A stretch of 64,000 nucleotides of DNA, from contig JAXHMZ010000003.1 in assembly GCA_034521025.1 (NCBI GenBank), positions 79,726-143,725 of the forward strand, in the 5' to 3' direction. Under the pieces are notes generated by a model that searched no databases, was not told the origin of the DNA, and worked only from the letters and a program-made list of their open reading frames with translations. This DNA comes from Candidatus Campbellbacteria bacterium (GTDB lineage Bacteria > Patescibacteriota > Minisyncoccia > Phycocordibacterales > JAXHMZ01). Every line of letters begins with the position of its first letter. The stretch's first letter is position 1. A program made the position numbers and the translations under genes. Shown one piece after another: positions 18,941-63,255 of this stretch.

Positions 18941-18961
18941 AGATATTTAATGTTGAATTTT

Positions 18962-19188
18962 AAAGCAAAAATCCGCCCCTTGATACAAACCGATGCTTTC
19001 GTTTTATATCCAAGGGCGGATTTTCCGCGGTACCACCTTGACTTCTCGCTCATTACAGCTGTTTCGGGCTTACCCGGAAGGATCTACTCTCACGCTTGCT
19101 AGTGATTTCTACCTTCAAGCTCGGTTAGAGTCAGCTAACCTCAAACGCTTATGCTCTCTTTAGCTTATGAGATTTTTGCGAAATACGC
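18962..19188 (-). promoter_or_regulatory. T-box riboswitch leader upstream of aspS
   Basis: minus strand contains AGAGAG, conserved T-box sequence AGGTGGTACCGCGG (plus 19025-19039) immediately 5-prime of a strong terminator hairpin AATCCGCCCTTGG...CCAAGGGGCGGATTTTTG; a GAC (Asp) triplet in a stem I loop. Confidence 0.7.
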
Positions 19189-19190
19189 AA

Positions 19191-19751
19191 CTACCCGCGA
19201 AGTACTTGCTGCGCAAATGACTTGACCGTCGCTCTAGAATCAGCGGCCTCGAACTCTTCAAGGATCTCTTCTGAGACGTTGATCCCTTCGAGAGCCCCGC
19301 GGGTGTTTTCACGAAGGTTTATATGACCCGGATTTATTTCAAGCGCTTCGAAGTACAGCTCGAGAGCTTTCTTGTACACCTCCTCATCGTCGGTTTCTCG
19401 CGCTCTTTTGTGGAGTGCAAGAGCGTAGTTGTATATAAGGGAAAAGTGCGTATTGTTTAGCTCGTACGCTTTCTCATAATAATCTATCGCCTCACTCACC
19501 CTGTCTCGTCCGACCAAAAGAAGAGCAAGATTAAAGAGCGCCTGAAAATTGTTCTCATCGAGAGCTATACACTCCCTGAGCGCCTCCTCCGCTTCTGCTT
19601 CATCTCCATGATTGATGTAATACATTCCAAGCAACAGCTTTCCAAGCGGCGAATCGTTCTCCGTAAGCGCAGGAATGTGTTCTTCAAATGTGTTTGTATC
19701 TGCGTGCGCGAACGCTTCAAAAGCACGCAACACTATATCGTTTGTTTCCAT
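19191..19751 (-). CDS. TPR repeat protein
   Basis: 186 aa; multiple 34-aa TPR-like repeats (A..Y..A..P). Confidence 0.75.
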   Translation of the reverse strand: METNDIVLRAFEAFAHADTNTFEEHIPALTENDSPLGKLLLGMYYINHGDEAEAEEALRECIALDENNFQALFNLALLLVGRDRVSEAIDYYEKAYELNNTHFSLIYNYALALHKRARETDDEEVYKKALELYFEALEINPGHINLRENTRGALEGINVSEEILEEFEAADSRATVKSFAQQVLRG

Positions 19752-19778
19752 GTTTCTCTAGCGTTATTATATACTCGA

Positions 19779-19806
19779 AATATATAATGATTTTATAATT
19801 TGTCAA
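19779..19806 (-). promoter_or_regulatory. sigma70-like promoter for TPR gene
   Basis: minus strand TTGACA-16-TATATT about 30 nt upstream of ATG. Confidence 0.4.
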
Positions 19807-19822
19807 TGACCAAAATCAGTCA

Positions 19823-19860
19823 ACCTGCCAGGTTGACTGATTTTTGTGCTACCCCGGTTA
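19823..19860. terminator. bidirectional intrinsic terminator at GC-island boundary
   Basis: AAAATCAGTCAACCTG-CC-AGGTTGACTGATTTTTG perfect 16-bp stem. Confidence 0.65.
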
Positions 19861-19988
19861 ATACTTCCAACCCGGTTTTGAATATAAATCACCCCGAACC
19901 AAAGGTCCGGGGTGTATGAAGAAAGGTCAACGTGCGACCACGACAATCGTCCTCCAGAAGGTGACAAACTCACTCTTCCACGTCAACT

Positions 19989-20402
19989 TCACCTCTTGGC
20001 TCGGTCGGCTACTAGCTTTTCCCAAAGGTCCTCGATATCGACCTCTGGAAGCAAGCCACTCAAAGCGGAGAAACGCCTGCTGGCGCCTCGGGCCTTGGCT
20101 ATATCACGATGCACGCGATCATGGAAGCCTACGTCCGTCGACACGAACGAAAGTAGTACCCCATAAGCCGCAGTCCATCCATCGGATTCCTCGTCGTACG
20201 TATCGAGTGCCTTGAGCGCTTCATCGATACGGTCGGCGTCTTCCGGTGGGAAGATCTCACGAGCAAACCTGCTGATGTCGCCAGGACCGCCGGCAAAGAG
20301 TGCGGGCCGTTCATCAAAGATGCAACGGAGGAAGATCAGTAATTGAAGCTGGAAGAGCTCAAGGTCTGAGTCTAGAGTGAGCTCTGGTGTTTCGGACGAC
20401 AT
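19989..20402 (-). CDS. hypothetical acidic protein (GC-rich island)
   Basis: 137 aa; own promoter and strong AGGAGG SD; approx 55% GC vs about 40% background. Confidence 0.5.
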   Translation of the reverse strand: MSSETPELTLDSDLELFQLQLLIFLRCIFDERPALFAGGPGDISRFAREIFPPEDADRIDEALKALDTYDEESDGWTAAYGVLLSFVSTDVGFHDRVHRDIAKARGASRRFSALSGLLPEVDIEDLWEKLVADRAKR

Positions 20403-20575
20403 GTATTCCTCCTATTTGAATTGAGGCTTCGCTACTCAACACCTCTTCGCCCAATGCGAGTGTGCCGTAGCAGAAAACTCTTCAACAGATTCGAGAAACT
20501 TAGGGCAATTCCCTAAAGTGAAGGACTTTCTGCTACGGCAGACACAGCGTTTCGAAGTTCGATTGATCTAAGTGT

Positions 20576-20604
20576 ATTATGCTATTATTTATTATTTTTG
20601 TCAA
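20576..20604 (-). promoter_or_regulatory. sigma70-like promoter for 19989..20402
   Basis: minus strand TTGACA-17-CATAAT; about 170-nt structured leader follows. Confidence 0.45.
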
Positions 20605-20638
20605 TGCTGTCCTGCGAGCTAGTAAGTGAGGTTAGATG

Positions 20639-21097
20639 TCAATCGTTCAAGCCGATCTGGAGATCATAGAGCTCGCGGTAAGTGCCGTTCTCTTTTTCAA
20701 TAAGTTCACCGTGCGTACCCTGCTCGACGATCGTGCCGGCCTTGAGTACAAGAATCTGGTCTGAGCGACGCACGGTTGAGAGTCGATGTGCAACGATGAT
20801 CGTGGTACGCCCCTCCATAAGTTCCTCAAGTGTCTCGGTCAGATCATGCTCGGTCTTCGCATCAAGCGCGGATGTGGGCTCGTCAAGGATAAGTATCGCC
20901 GGATCTTGTAGATACGCGCGCGCGATCGCCACACGTTGTTTTTGGCCGACCGAGAGCTTCACCCCTCGCTCGCCGACCAGCGTGTTATATCCGTCAGGAA
21001 ATCGCTGTATAAACTCATCCCCGTGCGCATATTTCGCTGCTTGCTCTACCTCTTCGCGCGTCACGTCCGGAGAGCCATACGCGATATTGTAGTGCAC
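20639..21097 (-). CDS. ABC exporter, C-terminal part of NBD (fragment after frameshift)
   Basis: 152 aa; YNIAYG..., LSGGQKQR signature, Walker B ILILDEPTSALD, H-loop. Confidence 0.8.
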   Translation of the reverse strand: MHYNIAYGSPDVTREEVEQAAKYAHGDEFIQRFPDGYNTLVGERGVKLSVGQKQRVAIARAYLQDPAILILDEPTSALDAKTEHDLTETLEELMEGRTTIIVAHRLSTVRRSDQILVLKAGTIVEQGTHGELIEKENGTYRELYDLQIGLND

Positions 21098-22311
21098 TGT
21101 ACTGAGTTAAAGAGTGCGATCTCTTGTGATACCACTCCGATCTGGCGACGCACGTTTTCAAGATCGATAGATCTCGTGTCTATTCCGTCAATAGCAACAG
21201 AGCCGGAGGTTGGGAAATAGAATCCCGCCACCAGATCAATGATCGTACTCTTCCCCTCACCGGAGCGCCCCACAAGTGCCGTTCTCGTGCCAGCCGGTAT
21301 AGTAAACGAAACATCAGTCAGTACTTCATTCTCTGTGTCATACGCAAATGAAGCATGGTCGAATACGATCTCGCCTCGCAAGGTCGGCGTCCCCGCTCCC
21401 TCCGGATGATAGATCTCTTGTGGCTCTTCAAAGATCTTTTCAGCCTCCAGAAGATTTGTCACATAATTCTGAAGCCATTGCCACATATCGTTGAATTCTA
21501 TGAATGGGCCATAGAGGAGGCCTGCATACGCATTAAAAGCAACAAGTTCACCAACGGAAATGACTCCCTGCGTTACAAAAATAATACCTAGAACGTAGAT
21601 CGCTATTTGCGTAATCAACACCAGCACTCGCTGAAAGAAGCTCATTCGCTCCCAGATACCGCGTATATGAAGAAATGTTCCCAATAGAGGTCCAGTAAAA
21701 TTATGTGCGATGGTATTCCCTTCCCGGTTTTCGTATGCGGCAATTTTTACCTCTCGCACTTGTGATATGACATTATAAACAGTACCGTGAGCTTCACGCT
21801 GATATTGGTGATATGAGCGCTCCAGTGGGGCGAGCGGAGCAAGCGTCGATCGGGCAACGACCACGTACATTGCTACGGAAACCACAAGTATCAGAGCAAG
21901 CCATACATTAATAAAGAATGCGAACGAAAATGCCGCCACGAGAGTCAGAAGTTTCGGCGCGATCTGAAGAATGTCCTGCGTCACGCTTTGCATCGTAAAC
22001 GCACCCATATTCATATTCTCCATCACTGAACCGAACCGCTGCTCTTTGTGAAATGACAGCGGAAGACGCAACAAATGATTATACCCCCGCACGCGAAAAC
22101 TGATCGACATACGCTCAGCGAGCGAGAGCGACCTGATCGAGAGCGCCCAGTCAACCGCGTACGTGACGAGCTGTATGACACACCACAGCGCAAGGATCAC
22201 AAATACGAACATCACTTCACGGCGAAAGTCCGACGGTAGATCGGCGATCGTCGTCGATGATGCGACCGGTGGTGATTGAATAAGCGCGTCCCAAGCGCGA
22301 AGTACGCCCAA
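21061..22311 (-). CDS. ABC exporter, TMD plus Walker A part (fragment before frameshift), MsbA/multidrug-exporter type
   Basis: 416 aa; 6-TM exporter domain then GRSGEGKST Walker A; TTG start; overlaps downstream fragment in another frame. Confidence 0.8.
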   Translation of the reverse strand: MGVLRAWDALIQSPPVASSTTIADLPSDFRREVMFVFVILALWCVIQLVTYAVDWALSIRSLSLAERMSISFRVRGYNHLLRLPLSFHKEQRFGSVMENMNMGAFTMQSVTQDILQIAPKLLTLVAAFSFAFFINVWLALILVVSVAMYVVVARSTLAPLAPLERSYHQYQREAHGTVYNVISQVREVKIAAYENREGNTIAHNFTGPLLGTFLHIRGIWERMSFFQRVLVLITQIAIYVLGIIFVTQGVISVGELVAFNAYAGLLYGPFIEFNDMWQWLQNYVTNLLEAEKIFEEPQEIYHPEGAGTPTLRGEIVFDHASFAYDTENEVLTDVSFTIPAGTRTALVGRSGEGKSTIIDLVAGFYFPTSGSVAIDGIDTRSIDLENVRRQIGVVSQEIALFNSVQCTTISRMALRT

Positions 22312-22435
22312 GAATCGGCAGAACTCACCGCACAGGTGTGTCGCGCATATAACGACCGATCAGGCGAACCCCTTGAATAATGGTTCGTCGATCTGTGGCA
22401 TTGTGTTCATGTGAATCGGCCACGATCCTTTTGGT

Positions 22436-23149
22436 TTACTCAGTCACCCCTATCGCACGACGTACTTCCGTCATTTTCTGTTCTGCCTGCTCGCTCGCCT
22501 TTTTCGCCCCAAGAGTGAGAACGTCGCTCACGTATGCTCGGTCTTTCAGGAGTTCGTTATATCGTTCACGAAGAGGTGCAAAATATTCTAATAATTTCAG
22601 AGCTAGCATCTTTTTTGAATCTCCATAACCGATTGAACCCTCGCGGTACTTACTCTCCAGATCTTCGATCTCTTCTTTTGACGATACAAGTTTATGAAGA
22701 TAATAAACGGTATCGGAATCAGGATCTAAGGGCTCACCAAGTGGCGTCGAGTCGGTCTGAATCGACATCACCGCGTCGCGAAGCTCATCGTCAGAACCAA
22801 AAAGCGGTATAACATTGTCATAGCTCTTGCTCATTTTGCGTCCGTCAATACCCGGGATCGTCTCAACGTCAGAGAGTATATGCGGCTCTGGGAGTTTAAA
22901 CGTCTCGCCATATGCGCGGTTGAACGCGTCCGCAGTGTCCCTCGCGATCTCGAGATGCTGTTTTTGGTCTTTGCCGACCGGAACTATATCAGCATCGTAA
23001 ATCAGAATATCGGCTGCCATTAACATAGGATAGTTAAACGTCCCTGCGTTTATTTCCTCCCCTTTTTCTTGCGCGTCTTTGTATGCGTGTGCCCGTTTAA
23101 GGTAAGAGATAGATGTAAGGCATTCAAATATCCAAGCGAGCTCTGTCAC
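22436..23149 (-). CDS. trpS: tryptophanyl-tRNA synthetase, C-terminal 237 aa (fragment)
   Basis: ELAWIF..., GKDQKQHLE, KMSKS; class I TrpRS. Confidence 0.85.
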   Translation of the reverse strand: MTELAWIFECLTSISYLKRAHAYKDAQEKGEEINAGTFNYPMLMAADILIYDADIVPVGKDQKQHLEIARDTADAFNRAYGETFKLPEPHILSDVETIPGIDGRKMSKSYDNVIPLFGSDDELRDAVMSIQTDSTPLGEPLDPDSDTVYYLHKLVSSKEEIEDLESKYREGSIGYGDSKKMLALKLLEYFAPLRERYNELLKDRAYVSDVLTLGAKKASEQAEQKMTEVRRAIGVTE

Positions 23150-23168
23150 CTCAGGAACGTCAGATTGT

Positions 23169-23411
23169 TTAAAAAGGGTTACTCTGTCCTTGGATCGAGT
23201 CCAACTGCAAGATACGCCGCCGCCACGTCAAAAGAGCTCTCCTTGCGAGCTTATCGGAACCACGAACGGTGGTTAGTGCGTGAAGGTCGGCAATAAAGAC
23301 AAGTGCATCATACTTGTCCTGCAGTTCTACAAACTGACGCATAGCACCAAAGTAATTACCTATGTGCAAACGCCCGGTCGACTTTATTCCTGAAAGAAGT
23401 GTTTTGCTCAT
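23169..23411 (-). CDS. trpS: tryptophanyl-tRNA synthetase, N-terminal 80 aa (fragment)
   Basis: MSKTLLSGIKSTGRLHIGNYFGAMRQFVELQ (HIGN motif); reading frame lost after ...HALTTVRGSDKLAR. Confidence 0.8.
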   Translation of the reverse strand: MSKTLLSGIKSTGRLHIGNYFGAMRQFVELQDKYDALVFIADLHALTTVRGSDKLARRALLTWRRRILQLDSIQGQSNPF

Positions 23412-35909: not shown

Positions 35910-36650
35910 TTAGCCCTTACAAGGAATCACCATCCGTGCATACTCGTGCACAGTCACGGTCTCGCTTGTCCAGCGAGCTTCAACGTGTCCGAAACGACCA
36001 CACCGGCCGACCGGACGACCAAAGCTCAATGAAGTGAACCCGGTCATCAACATTCCATCCGCAGGGGTGAAGTTGACAGTATTGGTGATACCGTTCTGGA
36101 CCACCTCCTGCACACCCAAACCATGCGAACTGATGTCGGTAAGAACAAATGAACCCTCAGACAAGTGCAGTTCAGACACGTGCAGTTCTGCACTGTCAAA
36201 GCTTACCAGCGAATCATCCATGTATGTGTCATCGAACACCAGCGGAAATGACAGGAACAAGGTAAGCATTTCAGGCGAGTCCACGTAAACGTTGCTCACC
36301 ACTCCACCTGAAGCATCAATGGTCACGCTCTCATCCGAGAAAAGACTAACGTCCCTCGTGACGCTTATCGAGCCAGACTCGGTGAACGTGAAAACTCGCA
36401 CGCTGTAGTCTCCCGGTGGAAACGTAAATACCTGAAACCGATCGACGAAATTATTCATCGTATCGACTGGTTCGCCGTCTTCGTTGTAGATGACCAAGCT
36501 ATTGATAGCCTCGCCATCAGGCGTAGAGCTTACCACCTGAACCTCGAGATCGAGAAAGTCTCCCGATCCTTCCGGCGCTTCGACGACCGAAGAGCAAGCG
36601 CTGATAACGAAGGCGACCAGTACCAGCAAGAAACCTGTAAAGTTCTTCAC
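35910..36650 (-). CDS. hypothetical lipoprotein (GC-shifted, own promoter/terminator)
   Basis: 246 aa; lipobox LVAFVISAC; GTG start with GGGAGG SD; about 50% GC. Confidence 0.55.
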   Translation of the reverse strand: MKNFTGFLLVLVAFVISACSSVVEAPEGSGDFLDLEVQVVSSTPDGEAINSLVIYNEDGEPVDTMNNFVDRFQVFTFPPGDYSVRVFTFTESGSISVTRDVSLFSDESVTIDASGGVVSNVYVDSPEMLTLFLSFPLVFDDTYMDDSLVSFDSAELHVSELHLSEGSFVLTDISSHGLGVQEVVQNGITNTVNFTPADGMLMTGFTSLSFGRPVGRCGRFGHVEARWTSETVTVHEYARMVIPCKG

Positions 36651-51748: not shown

Positions 51749-52036
51749 CTACTCAAACTCAGGAATACCTTCTATTTCGTGATACACACTGAGATCAATG
51801 AATCTCCTCTCTCTTTGGCGTCCGAATGGATCTCTCAGAAAAACAACTTCGTGTACATATCCATTGCCCGGCAAAAGCTCACAAGAAAGTCGGCTTCTGC
51901 CAGTTGTAATCACTTGTATGCGCGAATCAGCATTGCACACAAAGCATCTATCTCTCTCCATCAATGAACTACAGAATAGATTGAAGTCTATTCGTGTCGG
52001 TCTTGAACGAAGATCCGGGTGCGAAGTCGGCATCAT
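51749..52036 (-). CDS. hypothetical 95-aa protein (second gene of cassette)
   Basis: ATGATG start overlapping upstream stop (ATGA), GGGGAGG SD; 3 Cys in N-half; possible toxin-antitoxin partner. Confidence 0.45.
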   Translation of the reverse strand: MMPTSHPDLRSRPTRIDFNLFCSSLMERDRCFVCNADSRIQVITTGRSRLSCELLPGNGYVHEVVFLRDPFGRQRERRFIDLSVYHEIEGIPEFE

Positions 52037-52608
52037 GCGACCTCCCCTGTATAGGGCGCAAGCGCGTTCTGAAGCTTTTCAGAAAGCAAGTCTTTTGTTT
52101 TAGCCGATACGGATCTGTGTACGCGGTAGAGGAAAAACCCACCTCCAACTTGCCATTCGTCTCCATTGATTTTCTTAACCCTCTGAAGACCAAGTACTTC
52201 GATCGGATGTACCGTTAATTTGTTGCCGGAAACTTCGTTCCAAGCGAGTGCATCAGACAAATTCAAATCTAGGTAAACATCACGCTCTTTAAGCTTTTTG
52301 GTAATCTTACTTACCGCCTTACTACGCTGTCCTTGAATGATGCGCTCAAAATCATCTGGATAGTAAGCTCTTGTAAGTCCAAGACCTTTAAATCCAAATT
52401 TCGCAGTTTTGCTGCGCATCAGATCCTGAAGAGCTCGCTCTTCTTCACGTACGTGTCGATCGACACGATCGAGTCCTATGAACAAAAAAAGTGCAGCGAT
52501 TTTCACACGCGGATCGTATGCAACATCGTCGTGTAGTGTAACAGTATCCTTTTTCGAGAGTTTATAGTCGCATACTGCAATTGCCAACCCGGGAAACTGC
52601 TCTGACAT
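52033..52608 (-). CDS. hypothetical 191-aa protein (first gene of cassette)
   Basis: strong AGGAGG SD, own promoter-like TTGAAT-17-TAAGTT; no recognisable motifs. Confidence 0.5.
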   Translation of the reverse strand: MSEQFPGLAIAVCDYKLSKKDTVTLHDDVAYDPRVKIAALFLFIGLDRVDRHVREEERALQDLMRSKTAKFGFKGLGLTRAYYPDDFERIIQGQRSKAVSKITKKLKERDVYLDLNLSDALAWNEVSGNKLTVHPIEVLGLQRVKKINGDEWQVGGGFFLYRVHRSVSAKTKDLLSEKLQNALAPYTGEVA

Positions 52609-54795: not shown

Positions 54796-55190
54796 GGAGG
54801 AATCTCCGCTCTATCTAATAGGCTTCTTTTCAATGTGCGCGAGTCCTCGGCTCAAAGCTTCCGGGCTCGTCATTATCAGGTAAACGCGCCCTTAGAAGCA
54901 TTTACCGCTCTATTTGAATTTGAGTTTTTTAAAGGGTGCGCGATCCAAGACTCGAACTTGGGACCTCGTCATTATCAGGTGATCGCGACCTTAGGAGCAA
55001 TCACCGCTCTATCCAATAGGCTTCTTTTCAATGTGCGCGATCCAAGACTCGAACTTGGGACCTCGTCATTATCAGTGACGCGCTCTAACCATCTGAGCTA
55101 ATCGCGCACATTGAAAAGAAACAATACATCTGAGCTAATCGCGCACTCTTTAAAAAACTTTCCTGCGACTGAGTAAATCGCGCGCAAAAA
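54796..55190. repeat. array of tRNA-Ile-derived partial copies and about 48-nt direct repeats
   Basis: 3-prime half of tRNA-Ile (anticodon loop to acceptor end) repeated at 54937-54978 and in degenerate form at 54866-54896; aggag(g/c)aatc(t/a)ccgctctatc(t/c)aataggcttcttttcaatgtgcgcga at 54796-54843 and 54992-55039; tRNA 5-prime fragments ctgagctaatcgcgcac at 55092-55108 and 55131-55147. Confidence 0.8.
55034..55107 (-). tRNA. tRNA-Ile (anticodon GAU), CCA not encoded
   Basis: manual fold: acceptor GCGCGAT/ATCGCGC, D arm GCTC-AGATGGTTA-GAGC, anticodon arm CGTCA-CTGATAA-TGACG, T arm CCAAG-TTCGAGT-CTTGG, discriminator A. Confidence 0.85.
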
Positions 55191-55722: not shown

Positions 55723-55917
55723 TACTTAGTACTCATAACCTATAAAGCCGCCCCTTGCGAGGCGGCTTGTTATTTTCTGCACAATTTCTTTTGCTTCATT
55801 CATCTCGGTGTCGCTGTTTCCGAGAATAGCGGAAAGATTTTGGATTGTTCTTTCAAACACACGCGCGATAAACGCACGTATCGACTCGATAAATCTGAAA
55901 ATTCAGATAAATCAAAA

Positions 55918-57405
<1,488 letters not shown>

Positions 57406-60458: not shown

Positions 60459-60992
60459 TTAGACTCGCTGTGCTTTTCTGAAGAAACGGCGTAAAGGAAT
60501 GTCTTTGTAACTACCAAGAGCTGAGATCATAGAGACCAGAACACCAATACCGAACACAAGAGCAAACCCCTGTACGATCGAGCTTCCAAAGTAGAAGAGC
60601 ACAACCGCCGAGATCAAAGAAGACAAATTAGCGTCTCGAACTGCCGGCCATGCTCTGTCAAAGCCATCCTGAATCGCACCTAAGCTCCCCTTTCCACTCT
60701 GAAGCTCTTCTTTGATGCGTTCAAAAATGATCACGTTGGCATCCACCGCCATACCCACGGAAAGTATGAAAGCGGCAATTCCGGAAGCGGTTAAAGTTAC
60801 AGGAATGAGTTTGAAAAGCGAAAGCATGACCAATGTATAGAACACAAGAGCAACCGCCGCTACTATCCCGGGTAACCTATACCACACGATCATAAATCCG
60901 AGTATCAGAGCAAACCCTATAATACCCGCGGAAACTCCGTCATCCAGAACCTGTTGGCCGAGAATTGGCCCCACGGAATTAGTAGAAACCAA
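60459..60992 (-). CDS. secD: SecD, C-terminal TM domain (fragment 3 of 3)
   Basis: 177 aa; SecD/F TM bundle; TTG start of ORF track; in frame +1 relative to middle fragment. Confidence 0.8.
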   Translation of the reverse strand: MVSTNSVGPILGQQVLDDGVSAGIIGFALILGFMIVWYRLPGIVAAVALVFYTLVMLSLFKLIPVTLTASGIAAFILSVGMAVDANVIIFERIKEELQSGKGSLGAIQDGFDRAWPAVRDANLSSLISAVVLFYFGSSIVQGFALVFGIGVLVSMISALGSYKDIPLRRFFRKAQRV

Positions 60993-61026
60993 CTCAATCG
61001 GAACCGGAAGCGCTCCAAAACTCAGA

Positions 61027-61551
61027 TCACGCGCGCAACTTTCTCGCTTCTTCGGGAGTAAACTGCCCGGAGATCACCGCCTCGCCGGTTGGTATCTCCT
61101 CTCTTATGACAGGAGTTGAGATAACTTCTCCATCAAGAAATATTGCCAAAACCTCCCCGACGTTATCACGAGTGATCTCAGCGAAAAGATCCCTTCCTTC
61201 ACTATTAAACCTAATGTTAACTATAGGCTCACCGGTTGTCTGGTCGAACTGAACAGAAGCACTTTTGACGTAGCGTCCTGTGAGTTCGGTCTTCTCGTAA
61301 AGATCCTCGGGTGATAATTCAAGCTCGGCTGTGGTTCCGTTTTGGCTTCCTTCAGAGCTCTCGCCTTCAGTTGTCTCTCCCTCGGAGTTACCTTCATTTA
61401 TATTAAGGCCTTCCAGTTGAGACTGATCAATTTCAAGTTCGCTTTCGTCTTTTCTCAACCGAAATTCCAAAACCGGAGTTTCGCCTATCATAGCGATAGC
61501 TTCATTGATATCCGTCACTCCGGGCAAGTTCAACAATGAGCCTGTTCTCAC
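61027..61551 (-). CDS. secD: SecD, periplasmic domain (fragment 2 of 3)
   Basis: 174 aa; LPGVTDINEA..., LAIFLDGEVISTPVI...ISGQFTPEEARKLRA typical SecD P1 head/base. Confidence 0.8.
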   Translation of the reverse strand: MRTGSLLNLPGVTDINEAIAMIGETPVLEFRLRKDESELEIDQSQLEGLNINEGNSEGETTEGESSEGSQNGTTAELELSPEDLYEKTELTGRYVKSASVQFDQTTGEPIVNIRFNSEGRDLFAEITRDNVGEVLAIFLDGEVISTPVIREEIPTGEAVISGQFTPEEARKLRA

Positions 61552-61864
61552 CTCCGGCTAATCCTCCCTTCTCCACTTGTACACGTGGCTCGGAAACACC
61601 AAAAAGATTGACACGACGCTCAATAACGTCGCGCAGTGCCGACATAGAGGCCTCTACTTCTTCCGGAGCTACCTCGGATGTATCCGCGTTATATATAAGT
61701 TGCGTTCCGCCGGATAGATCAAGTCCGTATTTGAAAGCAAATCCCGAAAAGCGAGAATCTTCTTTTTCAGAAAGCACAACAAAGGCCCCCAGGAGTATTC
61801 CGATCAGTACTATCACTACAGATACAATTCTCGCGTTTCTCATCATAGCGGCTACATTATACAT
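61502..61864 (-). CDS. secD: SecD, N-terminal TM1 and start of periplasmic domain (fragment 1 of 3)
   Basis: 120 aa; TM helix then GLDLSGGTQLIY and GGENRLIVEL. Confidence 0.8.
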   Translation of the reverse strand: MYNVAAMMRNARIVSVVIVLIGILLGAFVVLSEKEDSRFSGFAFKYGLDLSGGTQLIYNADTSEVAPEEVEASMSALRDVIERRVNLFGVSEPRVQVEKGGLAGGENRLIVELARSDGYQ

Positions 61865-62432
61865 TTGTTTTATCGTCTGACAAGGTGTCCTTATTATATC
61901 TCCTTAAATATTTTAGAAACTTGTCATGAAAGAGTTCTCTGTACACGTAGGCAAATAGAGCGCCGATTATAAATCCGGCAATTATATCAACAGGCCAGTG
62001 GACTCCAGCAACTACCCGCGCTATTGCTATCAAAACAGCGATGGCGAACAAAAAGCCACCCAATTTTTTGTTGTAGTACAAAGCAGCAATTGCGAGCGCT
62101 CCATAGGTAGCCGCGTGCCCTGACGGAAACGCGTCCGCCCCACCGTGCTCAAATAGAACCGTTATTTCATCAAAAAACAACGGCGGGCGCTCTGTCAGAA
62201 ATAGTCTTTTTAAAACTTGCGTATATACAAAGGCCGCGGTTGCCGGAGCGAAAATAGCGATAAAAGGATAGACAAATTTTCTCCCTTCTATGTACAACAA
62301 ATACAGCAGTACGCCGATCGCAAGCGTTAATCCGGCTCCTTCAGAAAGAAACAGAAAAATAGCGTCAAGGATCTCGCCCTTCCCCGCAAGAGTATTAAGT
62401 AATAAGAATAGTTGTATATTTAGCTCACTCAT
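61857..62432 (-). CDS. PAP2-family phosphatase (undecaprenyl-diphosphatase-like)
   Basis: 191 aa; KRLFLTERP, PSGHAATY, ARVVAGVHWPVD motifs. Confidence 0.8.
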   Translation of the reverse strand: MSELNIQLFLLLNTLAGKGEILDAIFLFLSEGAGLTLAIGVLLYLLYIEGRKFVYPFIAIFAPATAAFVYTQVLKRLFLTERPPLFFDEITVLFEHGGADAFPSGHAATYGALAIAALYYNKKLGGFLFAIAVLIAIARVVAGVHWPVDIIAGFIIGALFAYVYRELFHDKFLKYLRRYNKDTLSDDKTNV

Positions 62433-62722
62433 TGCCCTTTATTATTCTCTTCAATAGACTTGGCAACATTTTCAAAAAGCTTGATTACCGTTATCGGACC
62501 GACTCCTCCCGGCACAGGTGTAACCAAAGAAGCTTTTTCATAGACCTGCCTATCTACATCCCCTGACACTTCACCGGCAGACTCACTGGTCCCGGCATCT
62601 ATCAATACAACTCCCTCTTTGACCATATCCTTATCAATGAGACCAGCCTTGCCGACTCCGGTAACGATCAGATCAAACTCTCTGAGGCGATTCAGGTCCG
62701 AGTCGACTGTCAAACATCTCAA
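62429..62722 (-). CDS. folD: FolD, C-terminal part (fragment)
   Basis: 97 aa; LIVTGVGKAGLI, TPVPGGVGPITV. Confidence 0.8.
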   Translation of the reverse strand: MRCLTVDSDLNRLREFDLIVTGVGKAGLIDKDMVKEGVVLIDAGTSESAGEVSGDVDRQVYEKASLVTPVPGGVGPITVIKLFENVAKSIEENNKGQ

Positions 62723-63255
62723 ATGCTGCGCCTTTGTTCTCCAGCAAAAGAGAAGACTGGCTTCCCTACCAAATTTCCATAACCAACAATGGCTATTTTT
62801 TTATCTAGAAGGTCTATATTATTGCGCGACAAGATCTCTTCCACCGCTGCTGCTACCGGTGGCACGAACACATTTTCATTTTTCCGGTAAAGCTCGAGCG
62901 CGTTCGGAGAAAGACAGTCAATATCTTTTTCCTTTGGCACAATATCCAAAAATGTTTCCCGATTAAAGTACGAAGGCAGAGGCAGCTGCACCACTACCCC
63001 GTCAGATCTTCCGACTACGAGAGACTGTAGGATCTTTTCAGCAACTGATTCTATAGTGTTTTCGGGTAATTCATGAATATGAAGATCAACTCCAATTCTC
63101 TTTGCCACTCGTCTTTTGATGTTCAAAAAAGACCTGGTGGAAGGATCCTCACCAAAACTAAGAAAATCAATGTGCGGTTCTTTGTCGTACGCGGCGAAAG
63201 TTTTCTTTAGTTTACTCTCTATATCTCGCGCGATTTTTCTACCATCTACTATCAT
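62719..63255 (-). CDS. folD: FolD (methylenetetrahydrofolate dehydrogenase/cyclohydrolase), N-terminal and NAD(P) part (fragment)
   Basis: 178 aa; MIVDGRKIA..., IAIVGYGNLVGKPV. Confidence 0.85.
   Translation of the reverse strand: MIVDGRKIARDIESKLKKTFAAYDKEPHIDFLSFGEDPSTRSFLNIKRRVAKRIGVDLHIHELPENTIESVAEKILQSLVVGRSDGVVVQLPLPSYFNRETFLDIVPKEKDIDCLSPNALELYRKNENVFVPPVAAAVEEILSRNNIDLLDKKIAIVGYGNLVGKPVFSFAGEQRRSI

Follow-up and report, generated by a model that had tools for sequence, protein, structure and literature searches.

The junction between trpS, which encodes tryptophanyl-tRNA synthetase, and aspS in the metagenome-assembled genome of a Campbellbacteria-like Paceibacterium carries a block of GC-rich DNA, raising the question of whether this block is a foreign island or a variant of an ordinary locus. 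The sequence-only reading of the 64-kb window, the whole stretch of DNA analyzed here, had described a sharply bounded, horizontally acquired island encoding an MsbA-type exporter with an immunity-like partner. At face value this would be a foreign export and immunity module within the reduced genome of a minimal CPR bacterium, but what the evidence shows is more ordinary.

Sliding GC and tetranucleotide profiles confirmed that the region 19860–22435 deviates from its surroundings. Its GC content is 50.7%, compared with 42.4% across the rest of the window, a shift that is weaker and wider than the approximately 55% versus 40% initially proposed. The region is the highest-GC 2.6-kb stretch of the window (about 3.4 SD over the mean), shows the maximum tetranucleotide distance (z of about 4) and, with rRNA excluded, has the minimum normalized tetranucleotide correlation. 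The deviant block as a whole spans approximately 19191–23411 and comprises a TPR gene, a 137-aa open reading frame (ORF137), an ABC transporter gene and trpS. The proposed sharp boundary applies to the low-coordinate edge, where GC rises from 0.43 to 0.54 at about 19850 in 300-nt windows, and not to the high-coordinate edge, which is gradual, with 47% GC in trpS (22436–23411, minus strand) and 48% in RF1. Judged against gene-specific GC offsets in relatives, four genes are deviant, namely trpS (+0.044, versus −0.03 to +0.02 in relatives), the ABC gene (+0.082), ORF137 (+0.128) and the TPR gene (+0.051), and RF1 falls at the top of its normal range. In L001, L074, L088 and L089, the GC content of the ABC gene matches that of the host (offsets −0.03 to +0.02).

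The ABC gene (20639–22423, minus strand) encodes an ABCB-type half-transporter that is full length and disrupted in the record, as judged from its domain matches and collinearity with an ortholog. It starts at GTG 22423, 13 nt past the trpS stop, and is collinear with the intact 597-aa ortholog P0002 of L001 at 72% nucleotide and 76–79% amino acid identity. An N-terminal truncation, as a 416-aa open reading frame might imply, was rejected, since the N-terminus is in frame from this GTG. The fused TMD–NBD architecture assigned earlier is indeed present in one polypeptide, with 79.4 bits for PF00664 (cut-off 28) and 64.8 and 44.5 bits for PF00005 on two fragments. Conceptual translation recovers the Walker A (GRSGEGKST), Q-loop (VSQE), signature (LSVGQKQR), Walker B (ILILDEPTSALD) and H-loop (AHRLST) motifs.

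The label "MsbA-type" holds only loosely. The protein shares its overall architecture and fold class with the lipid A flippase MsbA, and MsbA models are among its top NCBIfam matches. However, the intact ortholog reaches only 380.9 bits against TIGR02203 (cut-off 602) and 287.4 bits against NF008381 (cut-off 867), far under both curated cut-offs, and the NCBIfam model of the NdvA glucan exporter scores marginally above the MsbA models while likewise staying under its own cut-off. Parcubacteria are not known as lipid A producers. Among solved structures, ABCB proteins and Sav1866 are nearest, with sequence-match scores of 479 bits for ABCB19 and 306 bits for Sav1866. Like Sav1866 (PDB 2hyd), TM287/288 and eukaryotic ABCB1/ABCB19, the protein has an N-terminal six-helix PF00664 TMD fused to a C-terminal PF00005 NBD, a length of about 600 aa and the full set of ATPase motifs. 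Unlike these systems, it is encoded by a single gene in a CPR genome, presumably acting as a homodimer, carries three Arg residues in TM1, and is broken by a stop and two frameshifts. If intact, it would act as a generic efflux pump, ATP-driven and of type IV (ABCB/Sav1866-like), for lipids or small hydrophobic compounds.

The surroundings of the ABC gene are shared with relatives. The gene order SLT-L31-RF1-trpS-(leader)-aspS-scpA-scpB-S11-mraY is kept in L082–L087, with trpS directly abutting the aspS leader. The island, whose absence from related genomes the earlier reading had suggested checking, is missing in the closest backbone relatives. L001 (79% identity) and two distant genomes, L074 and L089 (45–46%), have the ABC gene in the slot between trpS and aspS; the gene is missing at the locus in L082–L084, L002–L004 and others. 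The trpS|aspS junction is a recurrent variable slot holding a lineage-typical ABC exporter. All named best matches of the ABC protein belong to Paceibacteria/Parcubacteria, and with both matches and synteny inside the same lineage the idea that the ABC gene itself is a foreign island gene falls. Furthermore, it has diverged in proportion to AspRS and TrpRS, and any transfer must therefore have come from a close relative, not from a distant donor.

At the low-coordinate side, the native edge of the junction is formed by a putative T-box leader of aspS that includes a terminator (18941–19180, minus strand). It scores 33.9 bits against RF00230 (E = 6e-5), under the gathering score of 93, and its AAGGTGGTACCGCGG core, the conserved GAC in a short stem-I loop and the terminator are all kept in six relatives. 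For specialists, a putative, reduced T-box leader of a patescibacterial aspS may be more useful than the island.

ORF137 (19989–20402, minus strand; NCBI hypothetical protein U5L75_01210) is an orphan with 28 acidic and 16 basic residues. The description of an acidic 137-aa frame with its own promoter and Shine-Dalgarno (SD) sequence proved accurate: a sigma-70-like TTGACA-17-CATAAT promoter (20576–20604, minus strand) matches the consensus at 11 of 12 positions, and a perfect AGGAGG (20408–20413, minus strand) lies 5 nt before the ATG. The leader of about 170 nt contains a long imperfect hairpin (20460–20543, minus strand) that is unique in the window, has no Rfam match at E <= 1 and has a fold z-score of −1.9, which is not significant. 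Downstream of the gene, a terminator-like hairpin (19890–19914, minus strand) combines an 11-bp stem with a U-rich tail. A word-indexed search of 5.8 billion proteins returned only ORF137 itself, and an exhaustive HMMER search of 1.84 billion representatives returned itself and two spurious matches to repetitive proteins. No family was found in Pfam, NCBIfam, PHROG or PADLOC, and a 28-mer from ORF137 was absent in JGI metagenomes. The single-sequence AlphaFold2 model is all-helical with an uninformative pLDDT of 51, and Foldseek found no match to it in the PDB under E = 0.2. An open frame of this length arises in 5% of shuffles, making length alone marginally significant, and ORF137 may not be expressed or may not even be a real gene. 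As modeled, it would be a small acidic, helical cytoplasmic protein with no functional tie to the exporter.

The proposed pairing of exporter and immunity-like partner must be weighed together with the wider view of an island from a distant donor, in which an MsbA-type exporter and its cognate immunity-like partner form one export module. The GC and tetranucleotide deviation, the foreign-looking SD of ORF137 and the lack of the block in several relatives all speak for such an origin, and the proximity of an ABC exporter to a small acidic protein resembles peptide and bacteriocin exporters with immunity proteins (TIGR01193, NHLM). In contrast to those systems, the ABC protein contains no C39 peptidase domain in Pfam or NCBIfam, there is no precursor peptide gene, and the small protein does not recur with the exporter. 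More specifically, ORF137 is absent beside the ABC gene in L001, L074, L088 and L089, and this lack of any co-occurrence elsewhere leaves the idea of an export-plus-immunity pair without support. Each gene forms a transcription unit of its own, ORF137 having its own promoter and a 236-nt spacer to the ABC gene, and ORF137 has no homolog in any database searched. The ABC protein also scores under the bacteriocin-exporter cut-off (262.8 bits against TIGR01193, cut-off 523.85) as well as those for MsbA, its named best matches are all from the same class, its synteny is conserved, and the island has no integrase, tRNA or flanking direct repeats. The distant-donor export module is already largely refuted, and we consider it very improbable.

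The SD sequence of ORF137 nevertheless calls for an explanation. The 3' end of the 16S rRNA lacks CCUCC, so that the anti-SD is missing, and an SD-like core of any kind precedes only 8 of 52 genes; for these reasons the AGGAGG of ORF137 is anomalous for this genome. About half of Parcubacteria are known to have lost it (PMC9297842), referring to the anti-SD. The combination of high GC and a perfect AGGAGG in an anti-SD-less genome suggests that ORF137 came from an SD-using donor. A broader version, in which ORF137 and two further SD-led, family-less genes (35910–36650 and 52033–52608) were acquired recently from SD-using sources, for example a host bacterium or a phage, is doubtful in our view. 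If true, these three genes would trace the movement of genes across phyla into an episymbiont, and they would be candidates for new host-interaction proteins. SD-led orphan genes in an anti-SD-less genome are, as an observation of their own, perhaps more useful to specialists than the island.

ORF137 belongs to a segment that is itself an addition. The alignment with L001 runs to the ABC stop and restarts at 19173, defining a 1.47-kb insertion relative to L001 (approximately 19174–20643) with the TPR gene and ORF137. No homology to the inserted DNA was found by tblastx and blastn in 81 related loci or in the rest of the window. The TPR gene (19191–19751, minus strand) encodes a 186-aa acidic TPR-repeat protein, has its own promoter (19806–19779) and no SD, and close relatives of its product were absent in JGI metagenomes. 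With a predicted promoter each, the TPR gene and ORF137 are independent transcription units. Next to the TPR promoter lies a perfect 16-nt inverted repeat flanked by an A-run and a T-run; this is the bidirectional terminator with a perfect 16-bp stem reported earlier, located at 19812–19844 rather than 19823–19860. Compared with a classical genomic island, the locus shows deviant composition and patchy distribution, and it has neither an integrase, transposase or mobility domain in the island ORFs, nor meaningful flanking direct repeats, nor a tRNA target, the sole tRNA of the window being at 55033. It more closely resembles small genomic islets or homologous-recombination mosaics at conserved junctions ("flexible genomic islands" exchanged by way of the core genes beside them), in which a deviant segment lies between conserved core genes, content varies among relatives and mobility genes are absent. 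It differs from them in that the segment takes in a core gene, trpS, and in that the likely donor is a sister lineage and not a distant taxon.

Evidence for such a sister lineage comes from conflicting gene trees. The TrpRS tree joins the window with P0124 at 100% bootstrap, and in the L001/P0124 lineage, the relative of the trpS allele, the locus has 50% GC. The ScpA tree joins the window with L082 and L083 to the exclusion of L001 (100%), and AspRS gives the same grouping with L082 and L083 at 73%. This conflict is one between neighbor-joining trees of three genes, with partial L001 sequences for ScpA and TrpRS. The T-box leader is 75% identical to that of L001 and 63–68% identical to those of L082–L085, while the AspRS N-terminus shows the opposite. 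That gene-sized exchange occurs in this group is indicated at the sequence level by aspS of L082 and L083, whose products are 95% identical compared with 56–74% for neighboring genes.

A purely vertical history would take trpS-ABC-aspS as ancestral, with loss of the ABC gene in L082–L087 and others and a GC excess due to a local mutational or selective peculiarity, without any transfer. The presence of the ABC gene in the same slot in L001, L074 and L089 and its divergence in step with AspRS and TrpRS fit this history, and the TrpRS tree, in which the window and P0124 form the sister of the L082 group, has a shape that a species tree could also take. Identities between the window and L001 (0.74 for AspRS, 0.77 for TrpRS, 0.41 for ScpA) are not far from those of the pair L002–L003 (0.74, 0.70 and 0.48), so part of the conflict could stem from unequal rates or from a replacement on the side of L001. 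However, the ABC gene is host-like in GC in every other genome and about 8 points higher here, with a GC3 of 0.52–0.60 versus a genomic 0.31–0.43, and a pseudogene or relaxed gene is expected to drift AT-ward, not to remain GC-rich. As the ScpA and AspRS trees also place the window with L082/L083 and not with L001, we regard a purely vertical history as unlikely. A recent transfer from L001 itself was rejected as well, because the window and L001 differ to saturation at synonymous sites; the actual donor is therefore unsampled.

The record of the ABC gene is not an uninterrupted reading frame. Relative to the ortholog, tblastn places an in-frame TGA at codon 33 (22325–22327, minus strand) within the TM1 region, beside the three Arg substitutions. 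One frameshift lies right after the conserved TGRIIDD, with one nucleotide (22249, minus strand) where the ortholog has a codon, and another between LFN(S) and TVHYNIAYG, with 2 extra nucleotides (21104–21105, minus strand). The last is the frameshift that the sequence-only reading had correctly spotted at the LFNS/TVHYNIAYG junction; the other two lesions had escaped it. A DNA alignment implying four or five frameshifts in the N-terminal part was discarded, since tblastn gives one frame with one stop. Two frameshifts each also occur in trpS (both 1-nt, near 23241 and 23187), secD and folD (the four in these two genes near 61535, 61035, 62745 and 62705), giving nine lesions in four genes, all at conserved motifs in locally GC-rich DNA. 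The ABC coding sequence is under normal purifying selection, with AspRS-like differences of 0.17/0.09/0.56 over the three codon positions, and a relative-rate test counted 21 window-derived and 24 L001-derived changes.

Because equivalent lesions occur in trpS, secD and folD and purifying selection on the ABC gene is normal, the lesions are probably consensus or polishing errors. Real inactivation is the less probable, though still appreciable, possibility; a broken single-copy trpS would be hard to square with viability, and no second trpS was found in the window or was identifiable among database matches. That the clustered frameshifts are real and tolerated through some recoding is hardly credible. 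No motif common to the lesion sites stood out that would point to methylation as their cause, and searches for proteins identical to ORF137 or to the 416-aa ABC fragment matched no independent assembly of the same organism.

Should the lesions be errors, whatever process of poor quality caused them could also have yielded a chimeric consensus. Under a chimera reading, the trpS-ABC(-ORF137-TPR) tract and the patches in secD and folD, all GC-rich, would derive from a co-occurring, GC-richer relative of lower coverage or from cross-mapped polishing reads, and island and lesions alike would be artefacts of a metagenome-assembled genome, not features of one genome. The lesions are confined to four genes, three of which are housekeeping genes, and within them to highly conserved stretches that are GC-rich locally; some 25 kb of backbone for which relatives are available is intact. 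This fits such an origin, as does a tract that is L001-like between flanks that are L082-like by phylogeny. However, tract and inferred native counterparts would share only about 65–75% nucleotide identity, a divergence too great for the assembly graph to collapse or for reads to cross-map over kilobases. The junctions are biologically sensible, one 13 nt past the trpS stop and the other where the T-box leader starts, the insertion would require two chimeric joins, and long stretches between lesions translate cleanly. A chimera thus appears fairly unlikely.

We give about an even chance to a two-layer mosaic at the trpS|aspS junction. The first layer would consist of trpS, the gene for the ABCB-type homodimeric half-transporter and probably the aspS T-box leader. 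Its allele appears closest to the 50%-GC L001/P0124 lineage, and the backbone (aspS coding sequence and scpA) closest to 43–47%-GC relatives without the ABC gene. In our reading, the trpS-ABC allele came by recombination from a sister lineage richer in GC, because the gene trees conflict, the ABC gene and its synteny are typical of Paceibacteria, and the closer relatives have no ABC gene. Most likely, homologous recombination anchored in the conserved flanks replaced trpS with DNA from this lineage and brought in the ABC gene, and the recombined tract would not yet have ameliorated; no recombination junction could be pinned down. The 1.47-kb insertion with the TPR gene and ORF137 would form the second layer. 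What stands of the proposed horizontal acquisition is the deviant composition, the anomalous AGGAGG and the lack of the block in the closest backbone relatives, set against Paceibacteria matches of the ABC protein and a synteny that recurs.

Overall, the island is ordinary: mostly a lineage-typical ABC exporter beside a small orphan gene. The locus is also a warning about this assembly, since its frameshifts cluster in conserved, GC-rich housekeeping parts, and apparent pseudogenes in it need reads before biological interpretation. For the biology of the group, the locus would provide a small, concrete case of gene-sized recombination among CPR lineages, with an ABC exporter allele that was probably exchanged between related Paceibacteria.

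Nearly all genes of the window lie on the minus strand, where the gene order reads SLT-domain protein, L31, RF1, trpS, ABC exporter, ORF137 (a 137-aa acidic ORF), TPR protein, aspS, small protein, scpA, scpB, peptidase S11 and mraY. Within this array, the stretch 19860-22435 has a GC content of 50.7% against 42.4% in the remainder of the window. It is the most GC-rich 2.6-kb stretch present (about 3.4 SD over the mean), its tetranucleotide distance to the window average is maximal (z about 4), and its composition-normalised tetranucleotide correlation is the lowest, the 16S rRNA gene excepted. The GC step is sharp at about 19850, while the opposite edge is less so (trpS 47%, RF1 48% GC). Gene-specific GC offsets were controlled for by comparison with relatives; on this basis RF1 (+0.056; usually +0.01 to +0.05) falls just at the normal upper edge. 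Deviant offsets were found for trpS (+0.044 vs -0.03 to +0.02 in relatives), the ABC gene (+0.082 vs -0.03 to about +0.01), ORF137 (+0.128) and the TPR gene (+0.051), so that the compositional block covers about 19191-23411. The sequence-only reading is therefore partly confirmed: the GC-rich island exists, but it is broader than the interval proposed, and its contrast is smaller than 55 against 40%.

The ABC gene product is a TMD-NBD half-transporter (PF00664 and PF00005). The gene spans its full length on the minus strand, from GTG at 22423 to TGA at 20639, with three interruptions: codon 33 is an in-frame TGA (22325-22327), a surplus nucleotide follows immediately after the conserved TGRIIDD motif (22249), and two surplus nucleotides (21104-21105) account for the frameshift noticed earlier at the LFNS/TVHY junction. 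In conceptual translation the ATPase motifs are complete. Among solved structures, ABCB proteins, Sav1866 and TM287/288 come closest, and none of the NCBIfam equivalog cut-offs is reached (MsbA, 381 vs 602; glucan exporter, 388 vs 733; bacteriocin exporter, 263 vs 524). The label "MsbA-type" thus holds as a fold class, not as an MsbA equivalog.

The best database match is P0002, an intact 597-aa ortholog (79% identical) encoded on the 5-kb contig L001. This contig reads trpS-ABC-aspS-small ORF-scpA and aligns collinearly with the window (about 72% nucleotide identity). Among the top 120 matches, all named ones are Paceibacteria/Parcubacteria proteins (44-47% identity). The same family also lies between trpS and aspS in two distant genomes, as trpS-ABC-aspS in L074 and as trpS-glyoxalase-MIP-cupredoxin-ABC-peptidase M3-aspS in L089, where ABC identity (0.45-0.46) tracks that of AspRS (0.48-0.53) and TrpRS (0.56-0.59). 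In the other ABC-carrying genomes compared, the GC content of the gene equals that of the host. These Paceibacteria matches and the shared synteny speak against a distant source for the ABC gene. Nonetheless, the gene is patchy in distribution and compositionally deviant in the window. No ABC gene follows trpS in L082-L087, the nearest relatives by backbone genes (TrpRS 66-69%, AspRS 75-77%, ScpA 58-59%), or in many GTDB representatives, where the aspS leader comes next. The cargo of the trpS/aspS junction varies in other Paceibacteria, with a five-gene set in L089 (L089:3243-11291) and ABC alone in L074 (L074:7229-11443), which suggests that the junction is a recurrent insertion site or variable slot.

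Neighbor-joining trees of three genes, based on partial sequences, are in conflict: TrpRS of the window groups with P0124, from a relative of L001 (100% bootstrap), with the L082-L086 group as sister, whereas ScpA (100%) and AspRS (73%) place the window with the Logan contigs L082 and L083 to the exclusion of L001. The spread of identities between the window and L001 has a counterpart in one other genome pair, so the conflict may partly reflect rate variation. For the putative aspS T-box leader, identity is 75% with L001 vs 63-68% with L082-L085, and AspRS residues 1-80 show the reverse preference (0.61 for L001 vs about 0.70 for L082-L085). GC content is about 50% throughout the L001 locus and 43-47% in L082-L087. 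The simplest reading, we infer, is that a GC-richer sister lineage would have donated trpS-ABC-(leader) by homologous recombination. Since synonymous sites are saturated relative to L001, the actual donor is unsampled. Gene-sized recombination among L082/L083/L085-type Paceibacteria is suggested by the AspRS sequences of L082 (L082:11205-12641) and L083 (L083:3141-4586), which are 95% identical vs 71% for TrpRS, 74% for RF1 and 56% for ScpA in the flanking genes. The L31 proteins of L083 and L085 are 97% identical.

An insertion of 1.47 kb relative to L001 (about 19174-20643) separates the ABC stop codon from the aspS leader in the window and contains the TPR gene (19191-19751, minus strand) and ORF137 (19989-20402, minus strand). 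No nucleotide or translated similarity to this insertion was found among 81 related loci or in the remaining window. ORF137 (locus tag U5L75_01210) and a 416-aa ABC fragment match NCBI proteins of the Candidatus Campbellbacteria bacterium MAG, on a 149,257-nt contig. No homologs of ORF137 were found in 5.8 billion proteins or when 1.84 billion representatives were scanned exhaustively with HMMER, and no family matched in four HMM libraries; two weak HMMER matches were repetitive sequences and were dismissed. Its single-sequence structure model is all-helical and of low confidence (pLDDT 51), and no fold match was found for it. An open frame of this length arises in 5% of shuffles, and the argument for ORF137 being a gene draws on its promoter, its Shine-Dalgarno (SD) sequence and the two terminators downstream of it. 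Both the promoter, TTGACA-17-CATAAT at 20604-20576, and the AGGAGG motif 5 nt ahead of the ATG are present as first described. The perfect inverted repeat with 16-nt arms and A and T runs is likewise real but lies at 19812-19844, and a second terminator-like hairpin is located at 19890-19914. The ORF137 leader of about 170 nt holds a 25-nt imperfect inverted repeat (20460-20543; 84% complementary, 34-nt spacer). The repeat occurs nowhere else in the window, corresponds to no Rfam family and has a fold energy not significant against shuffles (z = -1.9). In L001, L074, L088 and L089 the ABC gene has no ORF137 beside it, and here ORF137 has a promoter to itself, set off from the ABC gene by a 236-nt spacer; it is thus not a conserved exporter partner, and the proposed module of an exporter with an immunity-like partner is therefore unsupported.

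The 3' end of the 16S rRNA (55916-55975, minus strand) reads ...GGTCGTGGAATATTT / ...GGTCGTGGAATATTTAA and contains no CCUCC anti-SD, which has been lost in about half of Parcubacteria (PMC9297842). An SD-like core of any kind precedes 8 of 52 genes. Given its perfect AGGAGG at ideal spacing and its GC content of 55.6% in a host without anti-SD, ORF137 probably derives from an SD-using source. The proposal of a horizontal origin holds up only when recast as intra-lineage allele exchange for trpS-ABC together with an orphan cassette of probably SD-using origin. Two further family-less genes have a strong SD, one at 35910-36650 (minus strand; GGGAGG), which is GC-rich (51.6% GC, GC3 0.595) with a lipoprotein-like N-terminus, and one at 52033-52608 (minus strand; AGGAGG). 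The three genes share no mutual similarity, and these two may be foreign acquisitions as well.

A putative T-box leader lies 5' of aspS in the window (18941-19180, minus strand) and is conserved among close relatives (L001:2480-2700, L082:10970-11204, L083:2879-3140, L085:7300-7622). It scores 33.9 bits against Rfam RF00230 (E = 6e-5), below the gathering score of 93. Stem I is very short, and its hairpin loop carries a conserved GAC (Asp) codon; the AAGGTGGTACCGCGG core is present, as is a terminator with its arms at 18968-18993 and 18999-19024. A T-box-like core precedes aspS in 8 of 74 GTDB Patescibacteria loci; no account of T-boxes in Parcubacteria or Patescibacteria was found in the literature searched.

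Lesions are not confined to the ABC gene. Two 1-nt frameshifts 55 nt apart interrupt trpS (22436-23411) near 23241 and 23187, both at CAAGGA, where one more A (CAAAGGA) would mend the frame; secD (60459-61864) is split at about 61535 and 61035, and folD (62429-63255) at about 62745 and 62705. In total, four genes, of which three have housekeeping roles, carry nine lesions, while the backbone genes that can be compared with L082, about 25 kb of sequence, are all uninterrupted. The lesions fall in strongly conserved motifs (GLDP, VELPG, GALP, VGKP, TGRIID, LFNxT) and in locally GC-rich DNA (68th-99th percentile among 200-nt windows). Differences between the ABC coding sequence and L001 per codon position are 0.17/0.09/0.56, with AspRS alike, and a relative-rate test (21 window-derived vs 24 L001-derived changes) shows no acceleration. 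Because broken trpS, secD and folD are unlikely in a viable minimal genome, we lean towards consensus or polishing errors rather than true inactivation. A second assembly of the same organism was sought as a check, and none was found. If real, the frameshifts in trpS, secD and folD would be remarkable.

As a whole, the locus is probably a small recombination mosaic or islet of a familiar type, carrying a generic ABCB-type exporter, and the mosaic itself is of low general interest. The putative reduced aspS T-box, the SD-led orphan genes in a host without anti-SD, and the clustered frameshifts may separately be worth attention.
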